Shown: positions 11,921-63,093 of the stretch, one piece after another
Layout: every line of letters starts with the position of its first letter
How positions within the stretch are numbered: the first letter of the stretch is position 1
Assembly (NCBI GenBank): GCA_041666745.1
Contig: JBAYGI010000005.1
Coordinates: 7,748 to 71,747, forward strand
DNA from: Candidatus Magasanikiibacteriota bacterium
Lineage (GTDB): Bacteria > Patescibacteriota > Patescibacteriia > Magasanikbacterales > GWA2-37-8
Reading direction: 5' to 3'
DNA length: 64,000 nucleotides
Notes under the pieces: model-generated
What the model was told of the DNA's origin: nothing
What the model saw: only the letters and a program-made list of their open reading frames with translations
Database searches by the model: none
Program-made: the position numbers and the translations under genes

Positions 11921-14866
11921 TTAAATACTTTGAAGTTCGATTAATAATTTTTCCATCTGTTGTTTGTCCGGATTTTTTTCAGCTGAAACCAACGCTAATT
12001 CTTGACCGATTTGTTTTCTTCTTTTTTTTGACCATTCATCTTTTATTTGCACTATCAATTCGGCCAACTCATCTTTAATCGAATCTTCTTCAATATTTTC
12101 CACCTGAATTTGGGCGATCATTTTTAAATTCTCAAAATCATCTTTGGATTCTGATTCATCAAAAAAACTTCGCCAAACTTCAACAGTATTGGCTTGGTTA
12201 GTATTATAATGTTTTTTTATGATTTCGTAAAGGTGTCCATAAAAACTCCCCTGCCAGCAACCGTCTTTTAAACCTGACCACAAAGAATTGATATATTGCG
12301 GAGAAAAAATCAAAATCATCAAAAATCTTTTTAACAACATGTCCAATCTATCCAAATCCGCCGCGCTTTTACTGTTTTCTTTATCTTTATTCTCTAGATT
12401 ATTTTTTTTGTTTTTGTCAAAACGTTTTATGTCATCTCTCAACACCGACGTGTCCGTACCCAATCTTCCCGCCAACTCTTTTAACCAGTAGTCTCTTTCG
12501 ACTGCAAACGGGATTAAATTGATAATCGGCAAAAGTTCATTGGCAATTTTTTGCTTGGCTTTTGGTTCAGAAGTATTTTTATTTAAAAAAGCCATTTCGA
12601 AAAACCAATGTAATACATCATCGGAATTTTTTACCGCCAAAAACCATACCTCCGGATTTTGTTTCAAACATTCATCGGCATCTTTTCCTTTTCCTTCCGG
12701 AATACGAATCGCTTTCACATTCAATCCCTCACCTAGAGCGATATCTATTCCGCGCTTCGCCGCTGCCACTCCGGCCGAATCACCGTCAAACGCCATGGCG
12801 ATATTGTTGGAATAGCGTTTGAGTAATTTTATTTGTTCTAGAGATAGAGCCGTACCGGAAGATGCCACCACATTTTTCATCCCCGCCTGATGACAAGCGA
12901 TCACATCCATTTGCCCCTCTACTAATACAACCAGATCCTGTGCTTTTATTTCAGTTTTGGCTTTGTCCAAACCATAGATCACTCGCGACTTGTCATAAAC
13001 CAAAGTTTGCGGTGTGTTTACATATTTTCCGCCACTATTTTCGGTCTCTACCAAAACTCGTCCGGTAAAACCAACTACATTTCCATGCACATCCCAAATC
13101 GGAAACATTATTCGTCCGCGGAAACGATCGTAAAATCCTTGTCCGGCGCGCGCCACATCTTTTTTTATTACCAAACCGGCCGCCACCAAATCATCGACTC
13201 CGATTCCTTTTTTTAAAAAATATTTTGTTAATAAATCCCACTGATCCGGGATAAAACCAATTTGCCATTTTTCGATTGTTTCTTTTTTCAAACCACGTTT
13301 TTCCAAATATTCACGCGCACCTTTGGCACCTTCCATCTCAGTCAAAATATGATGAAAAAAATAAGCCGCCTTTTGGTTGATTTCCAAAATGCGATTTTTT
13401 TGACTTTTATCTATTTCACTTCGATAGTTATCTATTTTTACCCCGGCGCGATCAGCCAATAATTTCAAAGTTTCAGGAAAATCCAGCCCCTCCATCTCTT
13501 GTACAAAAGAAAAAATATCTCCACCTTTTCCGCAATTACTAACTGCAAAATTCTCGGTCAAATACGAATGATCTTGTGATACGGTCAGATTAAAAACTGG
13601 CCCTTCAAAACTAGAACTTGTAATTTTTTTAATCGGATAGATAACAAACTTAGTCTCGCCATCCACCAGCCAATCCGTATATTTCGCTTGGACATCCTCG
13701 TACCACATTACATGGTATGACTTTTTATGATGGACTCCACGCTTATCCGTTTTTTCTTGATGTTGAAAAATACTAGGGATAATATTCAATCTCAACAATA
13801 TTTCCTTTAGTTGAAAAACTAAACTGTGTGATATCGTACTAACACTCCTATAATCAGGTCTTGATTTTTTACCACCTTTACTATTATGTCCGTCCCCTCG
13901 AAATATAGCTTCCAACAATATCCTTTGTTTACTAAAAGGCAGATACTCCCAACCATAAGGGATATGTTTATTGGCCGCGCCTTTGCCACATAAATTTTCA
14001 AAAATATTTGCTAAATTTGAATTACAACATGTTATTTCCAATCCAGTTTTTTTACCAGAACGTTTATGAATTGAAGCATTAATATTAAAAATGTTTTTAC
14101 ATAATTCAACAATATCCTGTGCGAATACCGGTTCATGACTGCCAACACTAAATCTTATATATCCACGATGATTACTACCTTCGGCTATCCAATAACCCAC
14201 TAATTTCAAAAAATCTTCGTTAATTTTTATATATTTAGGTAGCGCAAAAATCTTTTTGCCGACATTTTTTTTACCACGATTAAGATAATCAAAAAGTTTA
14301 ATTCTATTAATTTTAATTACTTTATCAACGACAGGATACAATAAATAATCATTCAATTTTAATTCGCCAGCGGAAATTTCTTCTATTTTATAACCTCTAA
14401 AAAATTTATGCGGGCAATTTTGTTTGCATTGTTTTTGGCACAATCTAGTCGCTCTTGATTTCTGTATACAATTCTTAGTTCTAACACAAAACACTTTGTG
14501 ATCATTTGTAATTTTTACTGGCATGTTTGATTTACGAATATATATTTGTCTTAACCCTCCCGAATAATTTCTAATCAGAGCACGAACAACATTGCATAAC
14601 TGTCCTTTGTGAGTATAAACAGAATCACCCACTTTAATATCCTCTATTTTGGTATGTCCACATTTAGTACGAATGAATGTTCCTGCCGGAAAACAACCAA
14701 AACATTTCCAAATTTGCTTTTCGGAATTGACCATGAAAGACGGCGTTTTTTCCTTGTGAAAAGGACACGGCGCTTTCCAATAAATGCCAGCTTTTTTGAG
14801 TGGCACATATTCTTGGATGGTCTGCACAATGTCAAGTTTTTCTTTGATGAGTTGAGTATCAGCCAT
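11921..14866 (-). CDS. dnaG: DNA primase DnaG with an in-frame intein
   Basis: Zn-ribbon CPFHKEKTPSF…KCFG, then the intein, then CGKGGDIFSFV. Primase/TOPRIM motifs follow (…VLVEGQMDVIA…AFDGDSAG…). 981 aa against about 590 aa for an intein-free DnaG. Confidence 0.85.
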   Translation of the reverse strand: MADTQLIKEKLDIVQTIQEYVPLKKAGIYWKAPCPFHKEKTPSFMVNSEKQIWKCFGCFPAGTFIRTKCGHTKIEDIKVGDSVYTHKGQLCNVVRALIRNYSGGLRQIYIRKSNMPVKITNDHKVFCVRTKNCIQKSRATRLCQKQCKQNCPHKFFRGYKIEEISAGELKLNDYLLYPVVDKVIKINRIKLFDYLNRGKKNVGKKIFALPKYIKINEDFLKLVGYWIAEGSNHRGYIRFSVGSHEPVFAQDIVELCKNIFNINASIHKRSGKKTGLEITCCNSNLANIFENLCGKGAANKHIPYGWEYLPFSKQRILLEAIFRGDGHNSKGGKKSRPDYRSVSTISHSLVFQLKEILLRLNIIPSIFQHQEKTDKRGVHHKKSYHVMWYEDVQAKYTDWLVDGETKFVIYPIKKITSSSFEGPVFNLTVSQDHSYLTENFAVSNCGKGGDIFSFVQEMEGLDFPETLKLLADRAGVKIDNYRSEIDKSQKNRILEINQKAAYFFHHILTEMEGAKGAREYLEKRGLKKETIEKWQIGFIPDQWDLLTKYFLKKGIGVDDLVAAGLVIKKDVARAGQGFYDRFRGRIMFPIWDVHGNVVGFTGRVLVETENSGGKYVNTPQTLVYDKSRVIYGLDKAKTEIKAQDLVVLVEGQMDVIACHQAGMKNVVASSGTALSLEQIKLLKRYSNNIAMAFDGDSAGVAAAKRGIDIALGEGLNVKAIRIPEGKGKDADECLKQNPEVWFLAVKNSDDVLHWFFEMAFLNKNTSEPKAKQKIANELLPIINLIPFAVERDYWLKELAGRLGTDTSVLRDDIKRFDKNKKNNLENKDKENSKSAADLDRLDMLLKRFLMILIFSPQYINSLWSGLKDGCWQGSFYGHLYEIIKKHYNTNQANTVEVWRSFFDESESKDDFENLKMIAQIQVENIEEDSIKDELAELIVQIKDEWSKKRRKQIGQELALVSAEKNPDKQQMEKLLIELQSI
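13535..14695 (-). mobile_element. intein (387 aa) with LAGLIDADG homing endonuclease, inserted in the DnaG zinc-finger CFG|CG site
   Basis: The intein begins CFPAGTFIRT… (Cys1) and ends …NFAVSN, followed by a +1 Cys. Two LAGLIDADG-like motifs are present (LVGYWIAEGSNHRGYI and LLEAIFRGDGH). The exteins rejoin as …WKCFGCGKGGD…, the canonical DnaG sequence. Confidence 0.7.
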
Positions 14867-24878: not shown

Positions 24879-24951
24879 CGGGCTGTAGCGCAGTTGGTAG
24901 CGCGCGTGGTTCGGGACCACGAGGTCGCAGGTTCAAATCCTGTCAGCCCGA
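24879..24951 (+). tRNA. tRNA-Pro (anticodon CGG)
   Basis: CGGGCTGTAGCGCAGTTGGTAGCGCGCGTGGTTCGGGACCACGAGGTCGCAGGTTCAAATCCTGTCAGCCCGA with C1:G72. Putative promoter TTGAAA-17-TACGCT at 24801-24829. Confidence 0.8.
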
Positions 24952-26409
24952 CAATTCGGCAAAAGAGCAGTTTTTGGAGACCTCTGCCATACTTTGGTAG
25001 GGGTCTTTTAGTTTAAAACTAGCCAAAGTTTTGTTTTCAATAGTAAGGTTCCAAAGTATATTTCCGAGCACATTACGTTTTCTCAAATCATCACGTTGTT
25101 CAAATTCTTTTTTGGCTCTACTGGCGGTTAAAAACTTGTTTTTCGTAAGTTCCAAAGTAGTTTCACTGTTAAAATGTTTTTGTTGTAATGTTTTAAGTTG
25201 GCTTTCAGTAGCGGTAACTTCGTTGTTCAATGATTGTATTTTTGCGTTGTAGAGGTCTTCGGATACGTTACCGGCCAAATAGCTGTCCACGAGCTTGGAT
25301 TGCTTCTCACGGGCAAGCGTAAGCTGTTTGGTGAGATTCTGTAAGGCGGTTTCGGTATAGGTTTTGTCGTGTCCTAACTCTTCCTTTTTAGCTAAATACA
25401 TTATTTCGATTATTTCCTCGTCAAATTCAATATCGCTAAATATTTTAGACATGATATTATCGACACTTTCCGAGCGTAGGTATTTTTTGTGCTGTTCACA
25501 GTTGCCTTTGCCATTAGTGCAGTAATAATAATCGTGGCCTTTTTTGTTGGTAGCGGTTAAGGCACAACCGCAGACATGGCAGTTCATTAAACCACGATGT
25601 AGAAAATTGTGGGTTTGCTTCCGGCTTTTGTTTTTGCCATTGATAATGCTTTGAACATTATCAAAAAGTTCTTGACCGACAATCGAGGTGTGAGTGCCAA
25701 CAAAATATTTTCCGTTCTGCACAACAAAACCGCAATGTACCGGATTAGTAAGCGCGCGATGTAAAACGCTTTTGTGGACTTTGTAACCGCCGAGCGTTCG
25801 CAAACCTTTGTCGTACATGACATTTACTAAATCCTTTATGCTGTAATTTCCTGTTTCGTAAAGATTAAACATTTCCACTATGTTCGGTGCCCGAACCGGA
25901 TCAGGATAAATAATCTTGTTGGCTTTATCATTTAAATATCCAAACGGGGCTTTTGTCGGCCAACCGCCTTTTTCTATTTTCGTTCGTATTCCTCTTTTTA
26001 CGTTCGTGCTTAAATCGTCAACATATTTTTTGGCAATACCAAAATCTAAACTCATGAAAAATTTATCGTCCGAGATATTTTTGTAAATCTTTTCAAAAGT
26101 TCGAATTTCCACAATTAGTTTTCTGTCCATGAACCAAGATAATTGGCCACCGTCCAAAGCGTTGCGAGCGAGGCGGTCTAATTTCCAAACGTATAAAACA
26201 CATTGGCCACGTTTTTCAATATAGGCCATTACTTCTTTGAAAACTGGACGACCCGGAGCTTTGGCCGACATACTTTCGCTAAATATCTTGTCAAAAACAA
26301 TACCGTCCCGTTCAGCAAGGCGTTTCATTTCGTTTGTTTGTGATTCAATTGATAAAACTTGTCGATCCTCGGATTCAGTGGATTTGCGACAATAAGCGAT
26401 GTATTTCAT
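24943..26409 (-). CDS. large serine recombinase (integrase)
   Basis: N-terminal resolvase catalytic domain (MKYIAYCRKSTESEDRQVLSIESQ), recombinase domain, Cys-rich zinc ribbon, coiled coil. The 3' end overlaps the tRNA-Pro 3' end by 9 nt. Confidence 0.8.
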   Translation of the reverse strand: MKYIAYCRKSTESEDRQVLSIESQTNEMKRLAERDGIVFDKIFSESMSAKAPGRPVFKEVMAYIEKRGQCVLYVWKLDRLARNALDGGQLSWFMDRKLIVEIRTFEKIYKNISDDKFFMSLDFGIAKKYVDDLSTNVKRGIRTKIEKGGWPTKAPFGYLNDKANKIIYPDPVRAPNIVEMFNLYETGNYSIKDLVNVMYDKGLRTLGGYKVHKSVLHRALTNPVHCGFVVQNGKYFVGTHTSIVGQELFDNVQSIINGKNKSRKQTHNFLHRGLMNCHVCGCALTATNKKGHDYYYCTNGKGNCEQHKKYLRSESVDNIMSKIFSDIEFDEEIIEIMYLAKKEELGHDKTYTETALQNLTKQLTLAREKQSKLVDSYLAGNVSEDLYNAKIQSLNNEVTATESQLKTLQQKHFNSETTLELTKNKFLTASRAKKEFEQRDDLRKRNVLGNILWNLTIENKTLASFKLKDPYQSMAEVSKNCSFAELSG

Positions 26410-26429
26410 AACAAGAAAAATTAAGATTG

Positions 26430-27239
26430 TTACTGAGGCTTATTTAACACCAAATCAAACAGCCATGCAAGTGCTTTCGGATCGTTCCTAACGTCGTAAG
26501 TTGTTCTTGTTATTTTTCCACAATGTTTGTTATCAAAACTCACCGTGTTAATTTTCGTTTCTTCCGGCAACAATTCCACCACTAAACTAACCAAATCTTT
26601 ATCATACAAAACCGTCCAGCGTTTCAATCCCTTACTGGCAAAATATTTCTTTCGACCTTTTAATCTTCCGTCTTTCAAATTCTTTGTCATATACTTTACC
26701 ATATACCGGCCAAGGTCTTTTACATTTCGTACCGACTTCACGTTAATATTTCCATGTCGCCATATTCGTTTTATTTCGTCATACACTTTTTCAATAAATG
26801 GCAGATTGAAAAACAAAACATGATAGTGAATTACACCCTCTCTTGTTTTGTCTTGAAACTCCGTAACGGCGATGTAATGCAAAAAGTGTTTTTTTGAACC
26901 GCCAACAAAATAGTTAAGGCGTTGCATAGCGACCTTAAAAAAACTACTGGCAATATCCAAATCACGAATATCGTCCTCAAAAGTGAATGTAACAAAAATG
27001 GGCAGGTACGATGTGCCGTTTGCTTTTAACCATTTATGAGCGTTGGAATTTACAAGACGACGGACAGCCGACTTTGCACGATTGGCCGAGCTAATTTCGT
27101 TTTCTTCCGGCGTGGTCAAAGGGTGTCCGGTTGAAGTGTGTTTTTTACGATTGTCGGGGCCATACTTGATTGGCTGTTCCATAAAATCATATTCGACGAT
27201 ATGACCGGCAATCGTTATTTTCTGATTAGTAAATTGCAT
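26430..27239 (-). CDS. rolling-circle replication initiator (HUH Rep, phiX174 gpA/plasmid Rep-like)
   Basis: Motif I PIFVTFTFED, motif II HUH VIHYHVLFF, and motif III with two catalytic Tyr GRYMVKYMTK (YxxKY). Confidence 0.65.
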   Translation of the reverse strand: MQFTNQKITIAGHIVEYDFMEQPIKYGPDNRKKHTSTGHPLTTPEENEISSANRAKSAVRRLVNSNAHKWLKANGTSYLPIFVTFTFEDDIRDLDIASSFFKVAMQRLNYFVGGSKKHFLHYIAVTEFQDKTREGVIHYHVLFFNLPFIEKVYDEIKRIWRHGNINVKSVRNVKDLGRYMVKYMTKNLKDGRLKGRKKYFASKGLKRWTVLYDKDLVSLVVELLPEETKINTVSFDNKHCGKITRTTYDVRNDPKALAWLFDLVLNKPQ

Positions 27240-52665: not shown

Positions 52666-54582
52666 TTATTTCACTACTTCACCTTCAATTGGGCCTTTGT
52701 CATCTGTCGGTGCACCACCAGCCGGGTTTTCGCCTTGTGGAGCGTTGTCAGTTTTATTTTTGGCGTCCGTCTGTTCCTTCTGATACATTTTCATACCAAC
52801 CGCTTGAGCGGCTTTGGAAAGTTCTTCAGCGGTTTTTTTGATTGCTTCGACATCATCTTTATCTTTTACTTCTTTGACCGCTTTCAAAGTTTCTTCCACT
52901 TTGGATTTTTCTTCGGCGGTAATTTCTATTTTCTTTTCTTCCACATCTTTCATCATTTTTTCGGTAGTGTAAATCATCGAATCGGCAATATTGCGAGCTT
53001 CGATTAATTCTTGTTTTTTCTTATCTTCATCGGCATGCAACTCCGCTTCTTTTTTCATCTTTTCGATTTCTTCTTTACTCAAACCGGAAGATGATTCGAT
53101 ACGAATACTTTGTTCTTTGTTGGTACCTTTGTCTTTGGCCTTTACATTCAAAATACCATTGGCATCAATATCAAAAGTAACTTCCACCTGAGGAATACCG
53201 CGTGGCGCCATTGGAATACCATCCAAAATAAAGCGACCCAAAGATTTGTTGTCAGCGGCCATTGGACGCTCCCCTTGCAAAACATGAATTTCTACACTTG
53301 GTTGGTTGTCTGCGGCAGTAGAAAATGTTTGAGATTTGGAAGTTGGAATAGTAGTATTGCGTTCGATCAACTTAGTCATCACCGAACCCATAGTTTCGAT
53401 ACCAAAGGAAAGTGGTGTTACATCGAGCAACAACACATCTTTGACGTCACCTTTGAGCACACCACCTTGCACGGCTGCGCCCACGGCTACTACTTCATCC
53501 GGATTCACATTAATATTTGGTTTTTTACCAAAGAATTTTTCTACCATTTGTAATACCAACGGCATGCGAGTCATACCACCGACCATTACTACTTCATTGA
53601 GATCGCCAACTTTTAATTTGGCATCTTCGAGTGCTTTTTTTACCGGCTCCAAAGTTTTTTCCACCAAAGCGCCAACCAATTCTTCCAATTTGGAACGGGT
53701 TAGTTTCATTACCAAATGTTTTGGGCCATTGGCATCGGAAGTAATAAACGGCTGGTTGATTTCACTTTCTTGAGCGGTGGACAATTCGATTTTGGCTTTT
53801 TCGGCCGCTTCCTTAATACGTTGTAAAGACAACGGGTCATTGCCCAAATCAATACCTTGATCTTTTTTAAATTCATCCAAAATCCAACGAATAATCACTT
53901 GATCAAAATCATCACCACCAAGATGAGTATCTCCATTGGTGGAAAGCACCTGAACATTATCCGGCGCAACTTCGAGAATAGAGATATCAAAAGTACCGCC
54001 ACCCAAATCATAGACAGCGATTTTTTGTTCAGTCTTTTTATCAAAACCATAAGCCAAAGCGGCGGCGGTTGGTTCATTCACTATGCGCAATACTTTCAAA
54101 CCGGCAATTTCACCGGCGTCTTTGGTCGCCTGACGTTGAGAGTCGTTGAAATAAGCTGGCACGGTAATTACCGCTTCAGTAATTTTTTCACCCAAACGTT
54201 CTTCGGCATCCGCTTTCATTTTTTGCAAAATCATCGCTGAAATTTCCTGCGGACTATATTCTTTTCCTTGTAATATCACTTTCACGCCTTCGCCGGCTTT
54301 GACGATTTTGTATGGCATGAGTTTGAGATCTCGTTGTACTTCTTCGTCATTCCAACTGCGACCGATAAGACGCTTGATGGAAAACAAAGTGTTTTCCGGA
54401 TTAGTTACCGCCTGACGTTTTGCCAACTGACCAACCAAACGTTCGCCACTTTTTGAAATAGCCACGATGGATGGAGTAGTGCGAGCGCCTTCTTTATTTT
54501 CCAATACCTTTGGCTGACCACCTTCGATGATGGACATACAACTATTGGTTGTGCCGAGATCGATTCCTAATACTTTGGACAT
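52666..54582 (-). CDS. dnaK: chaperone DnaK (Hsp70)
   Basis: [16 protein letters not shown], the Hsp70 signatures. 638 aa. Confidence 0.95.
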
Positions 54583-54600
54583 ATATGTATATTCTTACCT

Positions 54601-54624
54601 GTCATTCCCACGAAAGTGGGAATC
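54601..54624. repeat. palindromic repeat element copy (GTCATTCCCACGAAAGTGGGAATC)
   Basis: 8-bp stem with GAAA loop, 19 nt upstream of the dnaK start. Confidence 0.7.
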
Positions 54625-54655
54625 CCAGAGTTATTAATTTATTTTATTTTTTATT

Positions 54656-54679
54656 GTCATTCCCGCGAAAGCGGGAATC
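54656..54679. repeat. palindromic repeat element copy (GTCATTCCCGCGAAAGCGGGAATC)
   Basis: Consensus copy in the dnaK 5' region. Confidence 0.7.
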
Positions 54680-54995
54680 TGCGATTATTGATTACTTAAA
54701 AATCAAATTCTTTTTTTCTGCCTTGAGCTTGATCTAACCAGCTGTTTTTGTAACCAATCTTATATCCTTCTTTGTAAACCAAATACATGATAAAAACGAT
54801 ACCAACTAATTTTAATGTCAATTCCATATATAAAAATAATTTAAATTTATTCATCATTTGGATTAATTTTTCTTTTAATTCGCCACACATCGTTTTGCAA
54901 ACCAATTATTCTACTTTTAATATCTACCACAAAATAGATCATTACGACTAATAAAACTGAAAGAATTAATAATAAAATATTTGTCATATATAAAA

Positions 54996-55352
54996 TTAAT
55001 TTAAATTTAAAATATAATTTTTATCAGAGACACCACCATCTTGCTTCGCCTTATCAAATCTATTAAATTCCAAAAAATGTTTTATTTCCATTAAAACATG
55101 GATAAACAATTCCCAATGCATACCAACATTAACATTGATTTGTTTTATCTTTTTTACGCAAAAATGAATATTATGAATTTTAGTTCCATGAACATCAACT
55201 ACTAAAATATATTCCCAATAACCCATTTTATTTTCAATTTCATGTATCAAAGTACAATTAATTTTATAATTATTAAATAAATAAACATACTTGCCTTTTA
55301 TAGAGGAACTCGCTGGGGATGTTATTAAATTAAAATCTTCATTTTGACTCAT
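54996..55352 (-). CDS. hypothetical protein in AT-rich insertion
   Basis: 118-aa ORF in a very AT-rich (<30% GC) block. Confidence 0.3.
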   Translation of the reverse strand: MSQNEDFNLITSPASSSIKGKYVYLFNNYKINCTLIHEIENKMGYWEYILVVDVHGTKIHNIHFCVKKIKQINVNVGMHWELFIHVLMEIKHFLEFNRFDKAKQDGGVSDKNYILNLN

Positions 55353-55358
55353 AAATTT

Positions 55359-56003
55359 TTAATTATTTTGCTTCAAAATATTCTGCATTTTATTACTAAA
55401 ACTAAAACATGTGATACCTAATAGCGAAAAAATAGATAAAACTAACAAAATTCCACTAGGTATATTGAACCCTCCGACAAATAATAAATGTAATAAAACC
55501 ACAAATATTAACAGTACGCAAGCCAAAGAAATTATCATGAGCATAGCTATTCTAAAATCTGTGTCGCTTCTAATTATATTAATATTAATTAAAATAAAAG
55601 CCAAAATAGCGGTAAAAATACCCATAATTTCTATAAAATTGATTTGTAAATTTTTGCTTTTTTCATCTATTTTTTTATCTATTTGATTTAAAAAATCTGT
55701 TTGCTCAATCTTTAATTTATTTACATCAAGAATCAATGGCGTTATTTCTTTCTGTATTATATCTCTTGTGTGTTCGTCAGCATATGTTCCTTTGTCGCTG
55801 TCTGATAATTTTGTAAAAACACATTCACCGGTTGCTGTGCATTTTAAACCATAATTTGGATTTGTAACATTAGACAGACTATATGAAGATGGTGTTGTAA
55901 TAGATGAAAATTCTATTCCTTTTGTAGTATCATTAGATTTACAACCAGCACCCATTAACATAACTACTACTACTACTAATACTGTAAAAATTTTTAATTT
56001 CAT
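55359..56003 (-). CDS. lipoprotein with two C-terminal TM helices
   Basis: Lipobox LMGAGC, a central coiled-coil-like region, and two TM helices. 214 aa. Confidence 0.45.
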   Translation of the reverse strand: MKLKIFTVLVVVVVMLMGAGCKSNDTTKGIEFSSITTPSSYSLSNVTNPNYGLKCTATGECVFTKLSDSDKGTYADEHTRDIIQKEITPLILDVNKLKIEQTDFLNQIDKKIDEKSKNLQINFIEIMGIFTAILAFILININIIRSDTDFRIAMLMIISLACVLLIFVVLLHLLFVGGFNIPSGILLVLSIFSLLGITCFSFSNKMQNILKQNN

Positions 56004-56009
56004 AAAAAA

Positions 56010-56561
56010 TTAAATTTTAATTTTTTCCAAACATTTTTTATATAATTCTTTTCCAATTTCTTTCGCTCTGTCCATCATCCGATTATACATATACTCAATT
56101 TTGAACTTTCCATTTTCTTTACCGTGATTTACTAAATATGGATCAAAATTGGAGTCAAAAAATGATAAACTATCTGCGTCCATTAAATAATTCGCATCCT
56201 CATCGCCACCCACCTCGTGTTTTTCCACCAATGTTTTTACCAGTTGAATAAACTTTTCATCAAAATTATACTTTTTTAATAATTCAGCAATAATTCTACC
56301 ACTTTCGTTTGCGTGCGCTTGTTTATATTCTTCATAATTAGAATATTTATCTCCCCACTGCCCTTCATTTATTCTGTTGGCACCATGAAAACCTCGCTCA
56401 ATATCGTGACCCAAAGCGGCGATTTGCAGGGCTTCGTCTGCGTCGGGTTTTAATTTCAACAACCATTTCAGAGTTGTTTGTGAGTGTTGTGCGTCAGTTT
56501 TAATAACCGAGTTAGTCATCAACCGTTCTATCTCCTTTTTTATTTCTTCAAAATTATTCAT
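56010..56561 (-). CDS. HD-domain phosphohydrolase-like protein
   Basis: H…ALGHDIER…D motif arrangement. 183 aa. Confidence 0.5.
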   Translation of the reverse strand: MNNFEEIKKEIERLMTNSVIKTDAQHSQTTLKWLLKLKPDADEALQIAALGHDIERGFHGANRINEGQWGDKYSNYEEYKQAHANESGRIIAELLKKYNFDEKFIQLVKTLVEKHEVGGDEDANYLMDADSLSFFDSNFDPYLVNHGKENGKFKIEYMYNRMMDRAKEIGKELYKKCLEKIKI

Positions 56562-56655
56562 ATTGCAATTTTTGTATTTTATGATATATTACATTCATCA
56601 CGATGAGAGGTTACCCGAAGGGTTCTGTCCCTAGGCTATACCTCTTTTTTTTGTT

Positions 56656-56700
56656 GTCATTCCCGCACCCGCTTCGCGAGTATAAACTCCAGCGGGGATC
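56656..56700. repeat. palindromic repeat element, expanded variant
   Basis: GTCATTCCCGC-[ACCCGCTTCGCGAGTATAAACTCCAGC]-GGGGATC, with a 27-nt insertion in the loop. Confidence 0.5.
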
Positions 56701-56707
56701 TTTTTAT

Positions 56708-56998
56708 TTAAAATGGTTTTAACGTTGGATAAAGATCGTTCCACTCTGGATTATCTTTTTCTATCAATTCTGTTTTCCATTTTCTATTCCACTTTTTAAT
56801 TTGTTTTTCTCTGGTTATGGCATTTCTTACATCGTCATATTGTTCGTAATAAACTAAATTGTGAATGTGATATTTTTGGGTGAAACCTTCTATTGTCTCT
56901 TGTTTGTGTTCGTGGATTCTTCTTAATAGATTATTTGTCACACCTACATACAATACGCCATTTTTCTGGTTGGATAATATGTAGATGTAATAAGTCAT
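56708..56998 (-). CDS. standalone GIY-YIG nuclease family protein
   Basis: MTYYIYILSNQKNGVLYVGVTNNLLRRIHEHKQ carries the GIY…YVG and R/E/N motif arrangement. 96 aa. Confidence 0.75.
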   Translation of the reverse strand: MTYYIYILSNQKNGVLYVGVTNNLLRRIHEHKQETIEGFTQKYHIHNLVYYEQYDDVRNAITREKQIKKWNRKWKTELIEKDNPEWNDLYPTLKPF

Positions 56999-57010
56999 AG
57001 CCCCCTCTTA

Positions 57011-57125
57011 GATCCCCGTTTTCACGGGGATGACAATTGATTAGATTCCCATTTACATGGGAATGACAATGTTTATTAGATTCCCGCTTTCGCGGGAATG
57101 ACACAATTTTATTTATTAGAATGAC
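57011..57125. repeat. tandem cluster of three and a half palindromic repeat copies (reverse orientation) upstream of the GIY-YIG gene
   Basis: GATCCCCGTTTTCACGGGGATGAC (57011-57034), GATTCCCATTTACATGGGAATGAC (57044-57067), GATTCCCGCTTTCGCGGGAATGAC (57079-57102), and partial GAATGAC (57119-57125). Stem positions covary. Confidence 0.7.
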
Positions 57126-57139
57126 AAATTAAAAATAAA

Positions 57140-57574
57140 TTATTTTGTCTTTTTTGTAATTTTTATTTCTACTTTTTTTGGTTCGGCTGTTTTGGTTTTT
57201 GGACAAGTGATTTTCAGTATTCCATCTTCAAAACTAGCTTCTACATCATTTTCCAATACCACTGTCGGCAAAGCTATCTGACGGTAAAAAGCACCACTGC
57301 GAACTTCTTTGCGATAATAATTTTTTTCTTCAATCTCATGTTCTTTGTGATTTTCACCTTGTAAAGTGAGCACACCGTTTTCTACACTCACTTTCACGTC
57401 TTCCGGGTTGAATCCGGCCAAAGGTGTTTCCACCACCACCGCCTTATCTGTTTCATAAACATCCACCGCCGGTGTAAAAGCTTTCATGGTTGAATTTACG
57501 GCCGGCAGACGATTGAAAGCTTCGTCTACTTGATCAAATGGATCCCACATTGGAGACCAACGAATTAATGACAT
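57140..57574 (-). CDS. Hsp20/alpha-crystallin small heat-shock protein
   Basis: 144 aa with the alpha-crystallin domain (…AFTPAVDVYETDKAVVVETPLAGFNPEDVKVSVENGVLTLQGE…). Confidence 0.8.
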   Translation of the reverse strand: MSLIRWSPMWDPFDQVDEAFNRLPAVNSTMKAFTPAVDVYETDKAVVVETPLAGFNPEDVKVSVENGVLTLQGENHKEHEIEEKNYYRKEVRSGAFYRQIALPTVVLENDVEASFEDGILKITCPKTKTAEPKKVEIKITKKTK

Positions 57575-57607
57575 ATATATTTTTTATTAATTGATTTAAT
57601 TTAAATG

Positions 57608-57631
57608 GATTCCCGCTTTCGCGGGAATGAC
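57608..57631. repeat. palindromic repeat element copy in the hsp20 5' region
   Basis: GATTCCCGCTTTCGCGGGAATGAC. Confidence 0.7.
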
Positions 57632-57633
57632 AA

Positions 57634-58203
57634 TCACTTCGTGATTATCACTTTTGCTACTTTTACTATTTTATTTCCCATTTTATAACCTCCAGACACC
57701 TCTTTGATTATTTCGCCAGTTTCTTTTCCTTCCATTTCCTCCTCGCCTACACTTTCGTGCATAGCGGGATCAAATTTTTCACCAACTGTTTTTATTTCTT
57801 CAATACCATGACTTTTCAAAACATCTCCAAACTGTTTCATGATATATCCGATACCATCTGTCCAACTTTTTATTTGTTTGTGTTCTTCGTTGTCTGGTTG
57901 TAAAACCGGGTGGTGGAAAAAAGCGGTTTTGAAATTTTCATATACTGGAATAAAATCCTCCAAAATCATCACTTTACTCATTTGCGCCCATTCACCGCGA
58001 CGCTCACTGGTTTCTTTTTGTAAATTTTTGTAATCCGCCAAAGCGCGTTGCCAATCTTTTTTATATTCTTCCGCTTTGTTGTTATTTTCTTCGCAATTTT
58101 TACATTTCTTATTAAAAAACTTTGATTTTTCTTTTATATCTTCGCTCGGAATGACAACTTCTTCGTCTGGTTTTTCTTCTAATGGTTTTTGATCATCACT
58201 CAT
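57634..58203 (-). CDS. grpE: nucleotide exchange factor GrpE
   Basis: N-terminal coiled coil and C-terminal GrpE beta-domain. 189 aa. Confidence 0.8.
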   Translation of the reverse strand: MSDDQKPLEEKPDEEVVIPSEDIKEKSKFFNKKCKNCEENNNKAEEYKKDWQRALADYKNLQKETSERRGEWAQMSKVMILEDFIPVYENFKTAFFHHPVLQPDNEEHKQIKSWTDGIGYIMKQFGDVLKSHGIEEIKTVGEKFDPAMHESVGEEEMEGKETGEIIKEVSGGYKMGNKIVKVAKVIITK

Positions 58204-58204
58204 A

Positions 58205-58885
58205 TTATTTTGTTAAAATAGTTTTTACCATTTCTAAAAGTGTATAATTGCGTTTGTAGTTGGTGCGTAATGGAGATAATAAAGTAACCAGACTGTTGCC
58301 AAATTTAAACGACGTGGCAGACAGCATACTTCCAAACGGATGTTCGTCACCAATAAAAATTTTTATTTCTTCAGATACTAAATTATAAAATTCCGGAATA
58401 CAATCTTCACATCGATCAAACACCTGTGAAATATCCCCTACCACACCAAGCTCTACAAATTCCGGCTTGGAAAATAAATTGGATAATCCGGTGTAATAAA
58501 TAGAATTTGGTGAAAAAGCAAAAATCACTGTTTCTTGAGTAATCACCGCCAACGATTTTGATAAATTTTTCTGAGCCTGAATTTTGTCTTCCAGAGCAAA
58601 AAAACTTTCCAAAGCATCTGCTTCTTTTTTGTTAATTTTTAATTTATCCCATTCTATTTTTTCCAAATAATATTTATAACCCTTTTCGGTAGGAATACGA
58701 CCGGCACTGGTATGAGGATGAGTAAGATAACCCACTTCCTCAAGCTCGCGAAGTTCATTGCGTACAGTAGCTTCACTCAAATCCAGCTCGGCATCCGATA
58801 CCAAAAACTTAGACCCGATTGGTTGGGCGGTATCAATGTATTTTTCAATAACCAAGGTGAGTAGTTGTTCTTGACGAGGGTTCAT
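58205..58885 (-). CDS. hrcA: heat-inducible transcription repressor HrcA (start revised to ATG 58885; the track ORF extends to a TTG at 58927 that lies inside the promoter spacer)
   Basis: MNPRQEQLLTLVIEKYIDTAQPIGSKFL…, the HrcA N-terminal wHTH. The CIRCE operator sits immediately upstream. Confidence 0.8.
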   Translation of the reverse strand: MNPRQEQLLTLVIEKYIDTAQPIGSKFLVSDAELDLSEATVRNELRELEEVGYLTHPHTSAGRIPTEKGYKYYLEKIEWDKLKINKKEADALESFFALEDKIQAQKNLSKSLAVITQETVIFAFSPNSIYYTGLSNLFSKPEFVELGVVGDISQVFDRCEDCIPEFYNLVSEEIKIFIGDEHPFGSMLSATSFKFGNSLVTLLSPLRTNYKRNYTLLEMVKTILTK

Positions 58886-58886
58886 A

Positions 58887-58940
58887 TTAGCACTCAAACT
58901 ATACGAGTGATAATATACCACCCCCAAAATTAGCTGTCAA
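58887..58940 (-). promoter_or_regulatory. sigma-70-type promoter (TTGACA-17-TATATT) overlapped by a CIRCE inverted repeat
   Basis: On the minus strand: TTGACAgctaattttgggggtggTATATTATCACTCgtatagtttGAGTGCTAA. The CIRCE consensus TTAGCACTC-N9-GAGTGCTAA is matched with one mismatch. Confidence 0.6.
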
Positions 58941-58949
58941 GGGTAAAAA

Positions 58950-59278
58950 CTTATCCACACGCGTTCGGGCTGGACTATTGCTAAAAATCCCAAACCATGC
59001 TTTAATATGGCCTATCTGCGACTGGAATGAATGGAGGCTCACAAGTGTCCAACCTAGACGCTTTTGCGCTTATGGAGCGGTACCACTTTGTCCGGCGGCA
59101 CCATGACAGAACGCGCAAGACTCTAGGTTATACTGGAGTACAACGATTCTTACCCAGTAGACAGATCCTGGACGGTTCCATGTTACTTCACGCGTCTGTC
59201 AGGCGCGAAAAAGTACGGGGACCGTCCAGGCCCCCATACTAAAATCAAAATACCAACTAAATTAGTTGGTATTTTTTT
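58950..59278 (+). ncRNA. candidate structured RNA or foreign fragment: about 300-nt block of about 52% GC ending in a hairpin terminator
   Basis: GC content is well above the flanks. Multiple GC helices (e.g. GGACGGTTCC…GGGGACCGTCC). Terminator ACCAACTAAATTAGTTGGTATTTTTTT at 59248-59278. The only ORF (59027..59242) looks spurious. Confidence 0.3.
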
Positions 59279-59280
59279 TA

Positions 59281-59304
59281 GATCCCCGTTTTCACGGGGA
59301 TGAC
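59281..59304. repeat. palindromic repeat element copy plus two 3' partial copies (59318-59326, 59340-59348)
   Basis: GATCCCCGTTTTCACGGGGATGAC, then GGGAATGAC and GGGGATGAC fragments. Confidence 0.65.
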
Positions 59305-59353
59305 AATTCTTTATGTTGGGAATGACATTTCTTTATTTTGGGGATGACATTTG

Positions 59354-59923
59354 TTATTTTATCGTCTGAACTTCATGTAAAAGTACATTTTCTACATATA
59401 TACCACGGGCATAAAAGATCCGTTCTAATTCGTTTTTTAGCTCCATTTCTACCGCATCACGTTTGGTGCTAGTGATTTCCTGTAAAGCAAATTTGCTAAA
59501 TACCATACGCACCCGACTACGAATGGTTGGACGGATAATCTTGGCTACAAAATCTTCGCCAATCTGTTGCCAAATCGAAGGAATCTGGTGAACATCCAAA
59601 CGCAACAATATTGTCCCCTCTACTGCCACACGTAGACCATCTTGAGTCAAGGCGGCAATTGGAATATCCCCCAAAGCCTTTTCATTTTCAACACCAAACT
59701 GGCGACTGATAGTATATTCCAAAGTTTGAACATTAAACAACTTGGCCTTTTGCCAAAACGGAATTTTGAGATGTAGTCCAGGGGTCAGTACTTTTTTCAA
59801 TACTCCCCGTCCCAGATCATAAACACAGGCCACATAACCGGGTGGAACCGAAATAAAAAACCCCTTCAAAACATCATCCATTACAAATGAATACATCAAT
59901 TTGTCCAAAGAATCTCCAGCCAT
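59354..59923 (-). CDS. SPFH/band-7 domain protein
   Basis: 189 aa. …PGYVACVYDLGRGVLKKVLTPGLHLKIPFWQKAKLFNVQTLEY…, an SPFH core without an obvious TM. Confidence 0.55.
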   Translation of the reverse strand: MAGDSLDKLMYSFVMDDVLKGFFISVPPGYVACVYDLGRGVLKKVLTPGLHLKIPFWQKAKLFNVQTLEYTISRQFGVENEKALGDIPIAALTQDGLRVAVEGTILLRLDVHQIPSIWQQIGEDFVAKIIRPTIRSRVRMVFSKFALQEITSTKRDAVEMELKNELERIFYARGIYVENVLLHEVQTIK

Positions 59924-59933
59924 ATATAAATAA

Positions 59934-60632
59934 TTAGTTTTTACTTTTTCTAAACGGTAAAGTTAATAGATGAATTATATCGGAAAATAGCATAGAAGTC
60001 AAAATAAACAACGACTTCACCATCGGCAATACCCACAAGATACCAAAAGTAAACAAGGGGAAAACAAACAAAAATACCACCTGACTGGATTGCCATTTTT
60101 TCTGACCACGATTTTCCAAAATAATAGAAAAAAATAAATAAATCGCTGTTATACCGGACCAAACCCAATCGTGTAATTTACCAATTTCAAAACCATAAAA
60201 AAGTGTATTTACTTTCCCAGGAAAATCTATCCATGAATACAATATCTTGGCCATTTTTTCACCGGTGATACCACGCACAAATACCTGATAAAGCAAAACC
60301 AACACCAACAACTGAATAAGCAGGGTGAGGGTTTTTGCCCAAGGAGAAATACGATTCTTTTTCATTATTTTGCGAATTTCTTCTTGTTGAGCGACATGAT
60401 CATGGCGAAAAGCTTTGGCGGCCAGCGTAGCTTCGGCTTCGGCTTTTTCTTGTTTGCTACTATTGCTTTCAGAAATAATGGTGAGAGGTAACAAAACAAT
60501 ACGCAAAAAAACAGTCAGCCAAACTACCGCCCAACCCAAATTGTGGTCAGTGAGATTGCTATAAATCCAAATCAAAGCGTTAAACAACGGTATCAGCAGA
60601 TATTGGTTCCAAATTAGTGAGAGTATTGCCAT
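59934..60632 (-). CDS. YidC/Oxa1-family membrane insertase (short form)
   Basis: …GWAVVWLTVFLRIVLLPLTI…, the conserved YidC TM2 LLPLT motif, followed by a charged loop and further TM helices. 232 aa. Confidence 0.5.
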   Translation of the reverse strand: MAILSLIWNQYLLIPLFNALIWIYSNLTDHNLGWAVVWLTVFLRIVLLPLTIISESNSSKQEKAEAEATLAAKAFRHDHVAQQEEIRKIMKKNRISPWAKTLTLLIQLLVLVLLYQVFVRGITGEKMAKILYSWIDFPGKVNTLFYGFEIGKLHDWVWSGITAIYLFFSIILENRGQKKWQSSQVVFLFVFPLFTFGILWVLPMVKSLFILTSMLFSDIIHLLTLPFRKSKN

Positions 60633-60724
60633 AGTTATTAAATATATAATAGCACAAATTCAGTTTATAGGCAACAAAAAAACCGCCCTCCACTAGGGAA
60701 AGACGGTTTTAAAAATTTTGGGCT

Positions 60725-61483
60725 TTAAACTACTCTCGGCTGTTCGCTCTGCACAAACTTCTTGATATCTGAAATAGTGCTCATCATTTGAGCTGGAAAT
60801 ATAATAGTGGAATTTTTCTCAACACTAATCTCTGCCATTGTTTGTAAGTTTCTTAGCTGTAAAGCTATTGGGTGAGCCGCTATAATATCCGCGGCATCAG
60901 CCAATTTTTGAGCAGATAAAAATTCACCTTCGGCGGCGATAATTTTGGCGCGCTTTTCTCGTTCCGCTTCGGCCTGTTTGGCCATTGCTCTTTGCATACT
61001 CTCTGGCAGTTCGATATCTTTTATCTCTACTACTGATACCAAAACTCCCCAAGCTTCAGTATGAGCATCCAACACAGCTGCAATTTCTTTGTTGATAGCT
61101 TCACGTTCACTCAAAATTTCATCCAATTGAAAACGTCCGACAATATTTCGCACTGATGTTTGCGCGATTTGGTTGATTGCTGACATCACATTTTCAATAG
61201 CCACAATACTTTTCACTCCATCGACTACTTTGTAATAGGCTACCGCGGATACATCTACTGACACATTATCCTTGGTAATAATTTTTTGTGGTGAAATTGG
61301 CAAAGTTATAACTCGAAAATCCACTTTGCGAACTTGGTCAATAAATGGAATAACCCAATTTAGACCCGGCTCTTTGGTGGTGATGATCTTTCCCAAACGA
61401 AATACTACTCCTTTTTCGTATTGTTGAATAATACGCAATCCGGCCAAGATTATGGCCACTACTACGGCTATTGCTTGATACAT
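60725..61483 (-). CDS. stomatin-like SPFH/band-7 membrane protein
   Basis: N-terminal TM plus the SPFH domain (…[12 protein letters not shown]…[33 protein letters not shown]…). Confidence 0.75.
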
Positions 61484-61597
61484 AGATGTAGATAAATTAA
61501 ATAACTTAATGATTCTAGCCTACGCCAGAGTGGTTGTTTTGTCAAAGGACACATTGACTAAACCGCTTTTTTCTGGTATAATCGGCTTTTGAAACTA

Positions 61598-61621
61598 GAT
61601 TCCCGCCTTCGCGGGAATGAC
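61598..61621. repeat. palindromic repeat element copy in the 5' leader of the ABC-F gene
   Basis: GATTCCCGCCTTCGCGGGAATGAC, between an extended -10 TGGTATAAT (61573-61581) and the start codon at 61633. Confidence 0.65.
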
Positions 61622-61632
61622 ATGATAAAAAT

Positions 61633-63093
61633 ATGGATCACGGCGATGTCATTGTCCGTTTTGACAATGTAACATTTTATTATGATGAAAATAAAACACT
61701 TTTAGAAGAAGCGAGTTTTTCGGTGCGTGAAAATGCCAAAATTACTATCATGGGACAAAATGGCGCCGGCAAAAGTACAATTTTCAAAATGATTACCGGC
61801 GAACTAAAACCGATAAGTGGCCATGTTCATCTGGGTTTAGGCGCGACTATCGCTATCGCCACCCAAGTAATGAAACAAGAAAATTTGGAAAAAACTATAG
61901 AAGAATTTTTTTCGGCGGCGTTTGATAAAAAAATGTACGATCTACCAAAACGCATCAAAGATGTTTTGGCCGTTGTTCACATGGATGCACCACTCAATAA
62001 AAAAATAAAAAAATATTCAGGTGGACAACAAGCTCGTTTGCTCTTGGCGTACGCGTTGATTCAACAACCGGATATTTTATTACTTGATGAACCGACCAAC
62101 AATTTGGATGTCGATGGTATTTGTCATCTCACAAAATTTTTAATGGAATATCCAAAAACTTGTTTAGTAATTTCCCACGATGCCAATTTTTTAAATGCTT
62201 TTACTGAAGGAATTTTGTATTTAGATTCTTATACCAAAAAAGTAGAACAATACGTTGGCGACTATTATGTAGCGCTCGAAGAAATAGAAGCCCAGATCGA
62301 ACGCGAACGCGCCAAAAATGCTCAACTGCAAAGAAGTATTCAAGATAGAAAAGATAAAATAAATTTCTTTTCCCACAAAGGTGGCAAGATGCGTGCCTTG
62401 GCCAGCAAACTGCGCGATCAGGTGGAAGAAGCCGAAGAAAATATGGTCGAGGAACGTCGAGAAGACAAAACTATTACAGAATTTAATATCCCCACTCAAA
62501 CTGAAATTGTTGGTCCGGTAGTGGAAATAAATTCAGTCGGTGTAATGATCAACTACGAACCGGTACGTAAAAAATTGTTATCCCCGGTTTCTTTACGCAA
62601 AAAACAAAAATTATTAATTAGTGGCCCAAACGGAATCGGAAAAAGCACACTATTGCGAGCGCTGGCCAGCAACAAAGAAGCTGGGGCGACAATCAGCAAA
62701 GATGTGAAAATCGGATATTATCGCCAAGATTTTTCCGGTCTAGATTTTGACAAAACCGGTTATCAGGCATTAGCGGATATGATGGATGATCCTTGGAATC
62801 AAGAAATTTATGCCACGGCCTCTAGATTTTTATTGTCTTCTGATATTTTAAAAAATAAAATCGGTTCATTGTCTGAAGGACAAAAAGGTTTACTTTGTTA
62901 CGCTCAATTTGTTTTGCAAAAACCCGGACTGTTGATCATGGACGAACCTACCAACCACATCAACTTCCGCCACTTGCCAATCATCGCCAAAGCACTGGAT
63001 GAATTTGAGGGGGCGGTAATTTTGGTCAGTCACGCTTATGAATTTGTTGATCAAATCAAAATCGATCAAACTCTAGATCTTAGTTTGTTGTAA
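61633..63093 (+). CDS. ABC-F family ATPase (two ABC domains, no TM)
   Basis: Two Walker A sites (GQNGAGKST; GPNGIGKST) and two signature motifs (SGGQQARL; SEGQKGLL). 486 aa. Confidence 0.85.
   Translation: MDHGDVIVRFDNVTFYYDENKTLLEEASFSVRENAKITIMGQNGAGKSTIFKMITGELKPISGHVHLGLGATIAIATQVMKQENLEKTIEEFFSAAFDKKMYDLPKRIKDVLAVVHMDAPLNKKIKKYSGGQQARLLLAYALIQQPDILLLDEPTNNLDVDGICHLTKFLMEYPKTCLVISHDANFLNAFTEGILYLDSYTKKVEQYVGDYYVALEEIEAQIERERAKNAQLQRSIQDRKDKINFFSHKGGKMRALASKLRDQVEEAEENMVEERREDKTITEFNIPTQTEIVGPVVEINSVGVMINYEPVRKKLLSPVSLRKKQKLLISGPNGIGKSTLLRALASNKEAGATISKDVKIGYYRQDFSGLDFDKTGYQALADMMDDPWNQEIYATASRFLLSSDILKNKIGSLSEGQKGLLCYAQFVLQKPGLLIMDEPTNHINFRHLPIIAKALDEFEGAVILVSHAYEFVDQIKIDQTLDLSLL

Follow-up and report, generated by a model that had tools for sequence, protein, structure and literature searches.

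Hairpin repeats around a heat-shock operon of a Candidatus Magasanikiibacteriota bacterium are probable recognition motifs of an SsnA-type GIY-YIG nuclease

Introduction

SsnA is a 94-aa single-domain GIY-YIG nuclease (cd10448) that binds the Neisseria Transformation Sequence (NTS) and cleaves the DNA a few nucleotides to its 5' side (PMC11893778). The NTS, CGTCATTCCCGCGMAVGCGGGAATCYRG, is 28 nt long and includes the classical dRS3 repeat (Chenal et al., Nat Commun 2025, PMC11893778). The enzyme is active on single-stranded DNA (ssDNA) only, and there on the forward strand (GTCAT...GGRATC) only, leaving double-stranded DNA and RNA unaffected; in Neisseria meningitidis, NTS-bearing DNA transforms less under the SsnA system (PMC11893778). 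Four homologs have been characterised, from N. meningitidis, N. elongata, N. wadsworthii, and Wolbachia, and the catalytic residues Y6, Y17, and E64 of the N. meningitidis enzyme have been mutated (PMC11893778). In the same work, Ssn-related motifs (SRMs) were found to flank ssnA homologs in many bacteria, on both sides in 42% of the homologs; the SRM-rich genera include Rickettsia, Povalibacter, and Devosia, and Patescibacteria and Magasanikbacteria are unmentioned (PMC11893778). Here we describe a family of 24-nt hairpin repeats and a neighbouring ssnA-like gene in a 64,000-nt stretch of DNA (hereafter the window) from a Candidatus Magasanikiibacteriota bacterium (contig JBAYGI010000005.1, positions 7,748 to 71,747). 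The repeats, which lie around heat-shock genes, are very probably SRMs, that is, oriented DNA hairpins recognised by the SsnA-type GIY-YIG nuclease encoded at 56708-56998, a reading that we base on sequence comparison.

Identity of the repeat

The NTS core GTCATTCCCGCGMAVGCGGGAATC, which is the NTS minus its outermost bases, has four exact matches in the window, and the other five full copies of the repeat depart from it only through paired stem changes or a loop insert. With the definitions of NTS and SRM taken from PMC11893778, the degenerate SRM pattern, HGTCWYN(0-2)YYVSBRHN(0-5)WNVSBRGN(0-2)RNCYNB, was matched three times in the window, whereas 100 dinucleotide shuffles gave 0.07 matches on average. 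A pattern search recovered the 24-mer GTCATTCCCGCGAAAGCGGGAATC and its close variants at the positions named by a preliminary description of this DNA: with up to three mismatches allowed, there were five matches against 0.00 expected from shuffles, and looser scans gave eight canonical 24-nt copies and one long-loop copy, nine full copies in all. Judged by its sequence, the repeat element is an already published one, the SRM/NTS motif of the SsnA family of ssDNA nucleases. The likeness comprises the identical 24-nt core, an oriented hairpin with conserved 5' GTC and 3' C, clustered intergenic copies, a GIY-YIG gene of about 95 codons flanked on both sides, and the Y6/Y17/E64 numbering of the encoded protein. 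The locus differs from the described systems in its uncultivated Magasanikbacteria host, in a T rather than a C at position -1, and in the few copies seen here, which are restricted to the surroundings of the gene.

The stem varies by compensatory pairs, as the preliminary description had reported, and every variant that it listed was found in the window (CCCGC/GCGGG, CCCAC/GTGGG, CCCCG(T)/(A)CGGGG, and CCCAT/ATGGG). The covariation held when more copies were aligned: 96% of the cells in the wider alignment were paired, both-side changes occurred in 8/8 pairs, and 0/500 shuffles scored as high. From the covariation alignment (A1), 17 GC-rich matches that the inner-anchored pattern had made by chance were removed, an omission that slightly favours pairing. 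When the search was anchored on one part of the motif with the other part free, 72 of the 78 free inner pairs were Watson-Crick pairs (26 non-seed variants). The persistence of covariation in this wider sample supports the earlier proposal that selection acts on hairpin pairing. As ssDNA, the repeat forms a hairpin with eight stem pairs and a 4-nt loop, with folding energies of -6.6 to -9 kcal/mol (z of about -4).

At the gathering thresholds of Rfam, the window contained tRNAs only, and at E <= 1 there were only weak matches to FtrB and RAGATH-12, produced by the hairpin itself. The consensus of FtrB (RF02748, Francisella small RNA B) contains GuCauuCcCGCGuAGGCGgGaauC, the same hairpin as the SRM. 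Three window copies match this model below threshold (57575-57651, 57032-57127, and 61553-61641), with 25-30 bits against a gathering score of 66; the hairpin alone matches, whereas the rest of the 115-nt model is unmatched. These matches most likely arise because FtrB itself has the repeat within it, and FtrB may be a transcript that includes an SRM copy.

The nuclease gene and its cassette

The ssnA-like gene (56708-56998, minus strand) encodes 96 aa with a GIY-YIG nuclease domain only (Pfam GIY-YIG, E=7e-16, residues 3-75). The one further Pfam match was to the overlapping T5orf172 model; NCBIfam gave only a sub-threshold match to the N-terminus of intron endonucleases, and the nearest structures in a sequence search of the PDB were UPF0213 proteins, at E = 0.004-0.014 only. 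The protein is 100% identical to an NCBI entry annotated 'GIY-YIG nuclease family protein [Candidatus Magasanikbacteria bacterium]'. Residues Y6, Y17, R27, and E64 are invariant across 104 of its homologs, and Y6, Y17, and E64 share their numbering with the residues mutated in N. meningitidis SsnA. We assign it putatively to the Ssn family from its domain content, its size, the numbering of its catalytic residues, and its context. Given the identical core motif and the conserved catalytic residues, binding and cleavage of ssDNA hairpins can be predicted for this enzyme: by analogy with SsnA, it would bind the hairpin of forward-strand ssDNA and cut a few nucleotides 5' of it. The preliminary description took the gene as a mere neighbour of the repeats; we regard its product as their likely partner.

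In the window, three forward SRMs lie 13-81 nt upstream of the ssnA-like gene and one inverted SRM lies 8 nt downstream of it. The same geometry was found at 10 of the 11 ssnA-like loci compared, which include Cloacimonadota, Peribacteria, Anaerolineales, Proteobacteria, and a viral contig: the nearest upstream SRM is on the gene strand at a distance of 10-35 nt, and the nearest downstream SRM is inverted at 6-35 nt. Relatives of the window protein carry the cassette in various contexts. The order is queF, forward SRM, ssnA, orf55, inverted SRM, dnaK in P0003 (86% identical), and Sua5, forward SRM, ssnA, orf150, inverted SRM, RsmA in P0004 (83% identical), where groESL is 2.5 kb away; in P0007 (74% identical), ssnA stands between a forward and an inverted SRM with a compensatory ATTCCTGC/GCAGGAAT stem. 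The cassettes of the window and of contig L123 share 80% nucleotide identity over 332 nt. The homology starts 4 nt before the upstream SRM (AATT|GTCAT, copy D), spans the conserved Shine-Dalgarno leader (56999-57010) and the coding sequence, and ends at the stop codon. The flanking sequences are unrelated, and the two cassettes sit in different genomic contexts. Since the homology begins before the upstream hairpin, this hairpin belongs to the unit that travels with the gene.

Among GTDB species-representative genomes, the exact 24-mer is present in at least 120 stretches. Among the matches listed, it spans about 15 phylum-level groups, including the Patescibacteria lineages Paceibacteria, Parcubacteria, Saccharibacteria, Peribacteria, Falkowbacteria, and Sungiibacteriota, as well as Rickettsia (one genome), Povalibacter, and Devosia, and 6 of the 120 8-kb stretches also encode an SsnA homolog. 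A further 109 viral or proviral stretches in IMG/VR (L166-L274) contain the exact 24-mer, some in 3-4 copies, and two of them have a gene for an SsnA homolog that is flanked by the motif in the usual way (e.g. L189). The preliminary description had named confinement of the copies to this locus as an outcome that would speak for a local duplication: on the 80-kb source contig, a metagenomic one from ENA ERZ27249449, the copies are indeed confined to 7 kb, yet the 24-mer recurs in those 15 or so phyla.

Several points weigh against the identification of the repeats as SsnA recognition sites. The full 28-nt Neisseria NTS, with its 5' C and 3' YRG, has no match in the window, and position -1 is T, not C, in 9/9 copies. 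Neisseria SsnA is inactive after a change of the stem sequence even if pairing is kept (PMC11893778). In addition, the assignment of the window protein to Ssn/cd10448 is a provisional one, and none of the 120 listed homologs of the protein, all of them environmental, is a Neisseria entry. Because the full NTS is unmatched, the window copies are to be classed as SRMs and not as strict Neisseria NTSs; in their 3' flank, the first position is Y in 9/9 copies, the next is R in 7/9, and the final G is unconserved. Given the stem-sequence dependence of the Neisseria enzyme, copies D, E, and H (see below) may be poor substrates, or the specificity of the local enzyme may be broader.

Two side observations concern the cassette. 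Homologous membrane proteins of about 150 aa (43% identity, E=1e-39) are encoded at 10307-10759 in L123 and at 12754-13218 in L132, each directly followed by an inverted SRM; the L123 protein lies inside the ssnA cassette, and L132 has no ssnA, so the L132 protein may be cassette cargo or a remnant. The cassette is also found within a few kilobases of a chaperone operon in two lineages, near groESL in L123 (5495-7456) and near hrcA-grpE-hsp20-dnaK in the window (52666-58927) and in L276. This proximity could be a coincidence or could reflect a preference for highly transcribed DNA.

Positions of the copies in the window

The minus-strand genes of the region encode HflK-like, YidC, Band7, HrcA, GrpE, Hsp20, GIY-YIG, DUF4202/HD, three unknown, and DnaK proteins, and an ABC-F gene lies on the plus strand; the GC content of the host genome is only about 38%. 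Every full or partial copy falls inside 54601-61621 of the window, with none detected by scanning positions 1-54600 or the 3 kb of the source contig past the window end. All copies are intergenic, against a window that is about 92% coding. Six full copies are on the minus strand and three on the plus strand, a bias too weak for interpretation.

On the plus strand, copy A (54601-54624) has the CCCAC/GTGGG stem and precedes the dnaK start by 19 nt, in inverted orientation to that gene; copy B (54656-54679) is the consensus 24-mer and fits the published SRM pattern. Copy C (56656-56700), also on the plus strand, is inverted relative to ssnA, lies 8 nt past the stop codon, and forms the right cassette end. 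It has an 8-bp stem (with one G-T pair) and a loop insert of 25-27 nt, in agreement with the 27-nt insertion described previously; since the 3' arm pairs preferentially with an internal CCCGC in the minimum-free-energy fold, the insert may be a fragment of another copy. The remaining copies are on the minus strand. Copy D, GTCATCCCCGTGAAAACGGGGATC (57011-57034), lies on the ssnA strand 13 nt upstream of the ATG and forms the left cassette end. It is followed by copy E, GTCATTCCCATGTAAATGGGAATC (57044-57067), whose DNA hairpin has a folding energy of -6.6 kcal/mol, by copy F (57079-57102), the consensus 24-mer with no mismatch, which fits the NTS core pattern, and by a weak 5' half-copy remnant, TTGTCATTCT (57118-57127), read in the sequence. 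Copy G (57608-57631) lies between the grpE stop and the hsp20 start. Copy H (59281-59304), with the same variant as in copy D, is directly 3' of the band7 gene, and upstream of it two 5' half copies (TGTCATYCCC plus AAMATAAAGAAW; TGTCATYCCC at 59318-59327 and 59340-59349) are stacked with a 22-nt period. Copy I (61598-61621), which has a GAAG loop and one mismatch, lies in the divergent hflK/ABC-F region; a promoter-like TTGACT-17-TGgTATAAT at 61554-61582 places it inside the predicted 5' leader of ABC-F.

These coordinates agree with the placements relative to dnaK, hsp20, ABC-F, and the GIY-YIG gene that had been reported previously. The copy number was put there at ten or more full and three partial copies within 7 kb in both orientations; the full count is nine, and the three partial copies (two 5' halves, TGTCATYCCC, and one remnant), the range, and the orientations stand. 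The spacing is irregular, from 9 nt to 2.3 kb, with copies in both orientations and genes in between, which bears out the earlier view that the array is not CRISPR. A fourth partial match, at 58147-58156 in the grpE coding sequence, was considered as a decayed in-frame insertion and rejected, since relatives encode similar residues without signs of insertion; it looks like a chance match.

Empty and filled sites among relatives

A metagenome scan with GrpE found eight related loci (GrpE 74-84% identical, Band7 up to 99.5%). They retain the order yidC-band7-hrcA-grpE-hsp20-dnaK, and most have neither SRM nor ssnA. The comparison of empty and filled sites covers the dnaK, grpE-hsp20, and band7 sites, at which the flanking proteins are 75-99% identical among relatives; the abcF-hflK intergenic regions of the window and L132 are unalignable. 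At the dnaK site, copy A is present in the window and in L132, whereas L131, L136, L137, and L141 have the empty site. L131 and L137 read aataa|agtaa at this site, where the window and L132 gain about 30 nt, GTCATTCCCACGAAAGTGGGAATCCCAGAG. The grpE-hsp20 spacer is filled in the window only (copy G) and empty in seven related loci. At the 3' site of band7, the window has an insertion of about 66 nt, consisting of the two half copies and copy H, relative to L131, whose Band7 is 99.5% identical. By parsimony, the SRM insertions are recent in the lineage of the window, which has ssnA at the locus.

The junction between hsp20 and dnaK carries different genes in different relatives. In L137 there is no cargo and dnaK starts 85 nt after hsp20; the junction holds yhhQ-queF in L131, yhhQ-queF with a gene for an NYN-domain protein and a membrane ORF in L132, an unrelated 144-aa ORF in L136, and queF-ssnA in L276. 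In the window (54583-57139), it holds ssnA, DUF4202, and three ORFs; the SRMs that bracket them are forward at the hsp20 end and inverted at the dnaK end. Since the cargo differs among relatives, the hsp20-dnaK junction is a variable insertion hot spot. We therefore consider it very probable, as part of the identification of the repeats as SRMs, that their proximity to heat-shock genes reflects this hot spot and not regulation of those genes.

Stacked half copies are a recurrent feature of the motif. In several phyla, 5' half copies (GTCATYCCC plus about 8-14 unrelated nucleotides) stand directly upstream of a full copy, as in the window (59318-59349), L049 (1578-1623), L089 (805-851), L121 (2465-2504), and L132 (870-912), and this stacking may be a footprint of how copies arise. 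In a more distant relative, L138, an SRM, GTCATTCCCGCGAAGGCGGGAATC (389-411), is inserted in frame in grpE, and the variable loop encoded there reads ...HCHSREGGNPD.... The Rickettsia palindromic elements (RPEs) are likewise short palindromic insertions, which can enter genes without breaking the frame. RPEs are about 100-150 bp long, far longer than the SRM unit of about 30 nt.

Alternative explanations

The preliminary description had allowed a cis-regulatory role for the hairpins as RNA elements of the dnaK, hsp20, and ABC-F 5' leaders, where they might act as thermosensors or bind proteins. Copies stand 19-75 nt ahead of dnaK and 34 nt ahead of hsp20, and one lies in the predicted ABC-F leader; these placements would suit such a role, as would the covariation of the stems. 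However, the orientation of the hairpins is inconsistent, being inverted at dnaK and ABC-F and forward at hsp20. The orthologous leaders in L131 and L133-L137 have no hairpin, the orthologous dnaK, hsp20, and band7 regions being hairpin-free, and in L137 the 85-nt distance separates dnaK directly from hsp20. The same 24-mer also occurs in unrelated contexts in some 15 phyla (among the matches listed), and the RNA form is unbound by Neisseria SsnA (PMC11893778). Heat-shock control of the operon is explained by a single conserved CIRCE/HrcA promoter at hrcA: the CIRCE operator TTAGCACTC-N9-GAGTGATAA at 58887-58913 is the only one in the window, and the hrcA promoter TTGACA-17-TATATT overlaps it (58887-58940) and is conserved in all related loci. 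The SRM repeat is itself unlike the CIRCE pattern, TTAGCACTC-N9-GAGTGCTAA. On these grounds, we consider a regulatory RNA function of the repeats very improbable and do not retain this part of the preliminary description, although SRM hairpins may incidentally affect mRNA stability or translation. A role as intrinsic terminators was rejected, since no SRM scores as a terminator on the transcribed strand.

It is very improbable that the repeats are classical REP/REPIN elements mobilised by a RAYT (an IS200/IS605-type Y1 transposase) encoded elsewhere in the genome, with the GIY-YIG gene as a bystander. The anatomy is REP-like in its short GC-rich hairpin, conserved 5' tail, intergenic clusters, and two orientations, and the genome is viewed only through an 80-kb contig. 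The resemblance extends to recognition as ssDNA by a nuclease (here by analogy), to the inverted copies that flank the nuclease gene, and to the accumulation of solo copies between genes. In contrast to REP/REPIN-RAYT systems, the enzyme is of the GIY-YIG type and not an HUH/Y1 transposase, and the window has no RAYT gene: a Pfam search of the approximately 60 ORFs across the window found neither Y1/RAYT (IS200) nor IS110 transposases, which upholds the earlier observation of a REP-like or MITE-like (miniature inverted-repeat transposable element) repeat with no RAYT or IS200 in the window. Moreover, repeats flank the GIY-YIG gene with one and the same geometry at 10 of 11 independent loci, the repeat travels with the gene as part of one unit, and published biochemistry ties the exact motif to SsnA (PMC11893778).

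Equally hard to sustain is the proposal that the repeats serve a filamentous phage or an IS110/Piv-type recombinase as attachment or target sites, a use reported for Neisseria dRS3. Copies A, B, E, F, G, and I fit dRS3 (ATTCCC-N8-GGGAAT); the exceptions are copy C and the two ATCCCC...GGGGAT copies, D and H. In addition, an integrated element of the window (24943-27239) encodes a serine recombinase and a rolling-circle Rep. This element, however, adjoins tRNA-Pro 27 kb away with no SRM nearby, the window has no IS110/Piv gene, and phage targeting would be a secondary role that leaves the origin of the repeat unexplained. The locus also resembles the 'minimal mobile element' sites of Neisseria, in which, as here, repeats bracket a variable block of genes (hsp20 to dnaK in this case) that differs among relatives; unlike the dRS3/NIME regions of Neisseria, the locus has no RS intervening repeats, Correia elements, or associated Nf prophage, and it belongs to a genome of about 38% GC in a different phylum. 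Finally, a local duplication or assembly artefact, which the restriction of all copies on the contig to 7 kb might suggest, is refuted by the exact reproduction of five copies in the independent JGI contig L002, the presence of copy A in L132 from another metagenome, the compensatory differences and unrelated flanks of the copies, and the worldwide presence of the motif.

Mobility and possible role

As SRMs of the local nuclease, the solo copies have probably spread as insertions of about 24-30 nt into AT-rich intergenic DNA within a few kilobases of the cassette, and nuclease and hairpin repeats would persist together in the manner of a REP/RAYT pair. We suggest, tentatively and with more doubt than confidence, that the unit of SRM, ssnA, and inverted SRM (about 0.4 kb) is an autonomous mobile element, of which the solo SRMs of about 30 nt are non-autonomous derivatives. 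SsnA cuts in ssDNA just outside each hairpin would then move the units, directly or through repair. To our knowledge, no strand-transfer chemistry has been described for an SsnA-type GIY-YIG enzyme. In the cassette, cleavage of each strand is predicted just beyond the hairpins, on the upstream side at the start of the L123 homology, a placement that fits an IS-like unit without proving it. Mobility also fits the occurrence of the cassette in different contexts in relatives with 83-86% identity, the homology from the outer edge of the hairpin, the fresh insertions in the lineage of the window, and the recurring stacked half copies. Such an element, if real, would be smaller than any other nuclease-plus-repeat mobile system known; it would depend on a GIY-YIG enzyme and not on a transposase, and would be active in the reduced genomes of the candidate phyla radiation (CPR).

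With respect to function, the enzyme may cleave motif-bearing ssDNA that arises from incoming transforming DNA or from replication and repair intermediates, and such motif-directed cleavage would modulate recombination around the flanked genes. Control of the recombination of incoming or exposed ssDNA is, by analogy with Neisseria, the best-supported guess for the role of the system in a CPR host. CPR bacteria are thought to depend on DNA uptake, and an ssDNA-specific, motif-directed nuclease in their genomes is a candidate for control over which incoming DNA recombines. We note here, for the first time in Patescibacteria (CPR), an SsnA/SRM system whose 24-nt core is identical; this group is outside the scope of PMC11893778. 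At the nucleotide level, the empty and filled sites among relatives show insertion of SRMs in units of about 30 nt and movement of the cassette together with the hairpin upstream of it, as only hypothesised in PMC11893778; this comparative evidence for SRM insertion is new but incremental. The striking hairpin pattern thereby receives an ordinary explanation, a known SsnA/SRM system and no new heat-shock regulator.

Other features of the window

Between the band7 terminator and the hrcA promoter lies a GC-rich non-coding stretch of about 330 nt (58935-59278), which is ended by a bidirectional terminator hairpin at 59247-59275. It has no Rfam match, even at E <= 1; it is kept in L131 with paired changes and is missing from L134-L136. 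A 71-aa ORF within it (59027-59242) is broken by indels between the window and L131, so the stretch may be an unclassified RNA gene.

At 24879-27239, tRNA-Pro is directly followed by a gene for a large serine recombinase (24943-26409) and by one for an ORF2/G2P-type rolling-circle Rep (26430-27239); this region is probably an integrated ssDNA-replicating element, which carries no SRM. The DnaG primase gene (11921-14866) encodes 981 aa in total and contains an intein with Hint/intein-splicing and LAGLIDADG domains. The gene at 6318-6890 encodes a Translin-family protein (Pfam E=1e-19), which is unusual among bacteria.

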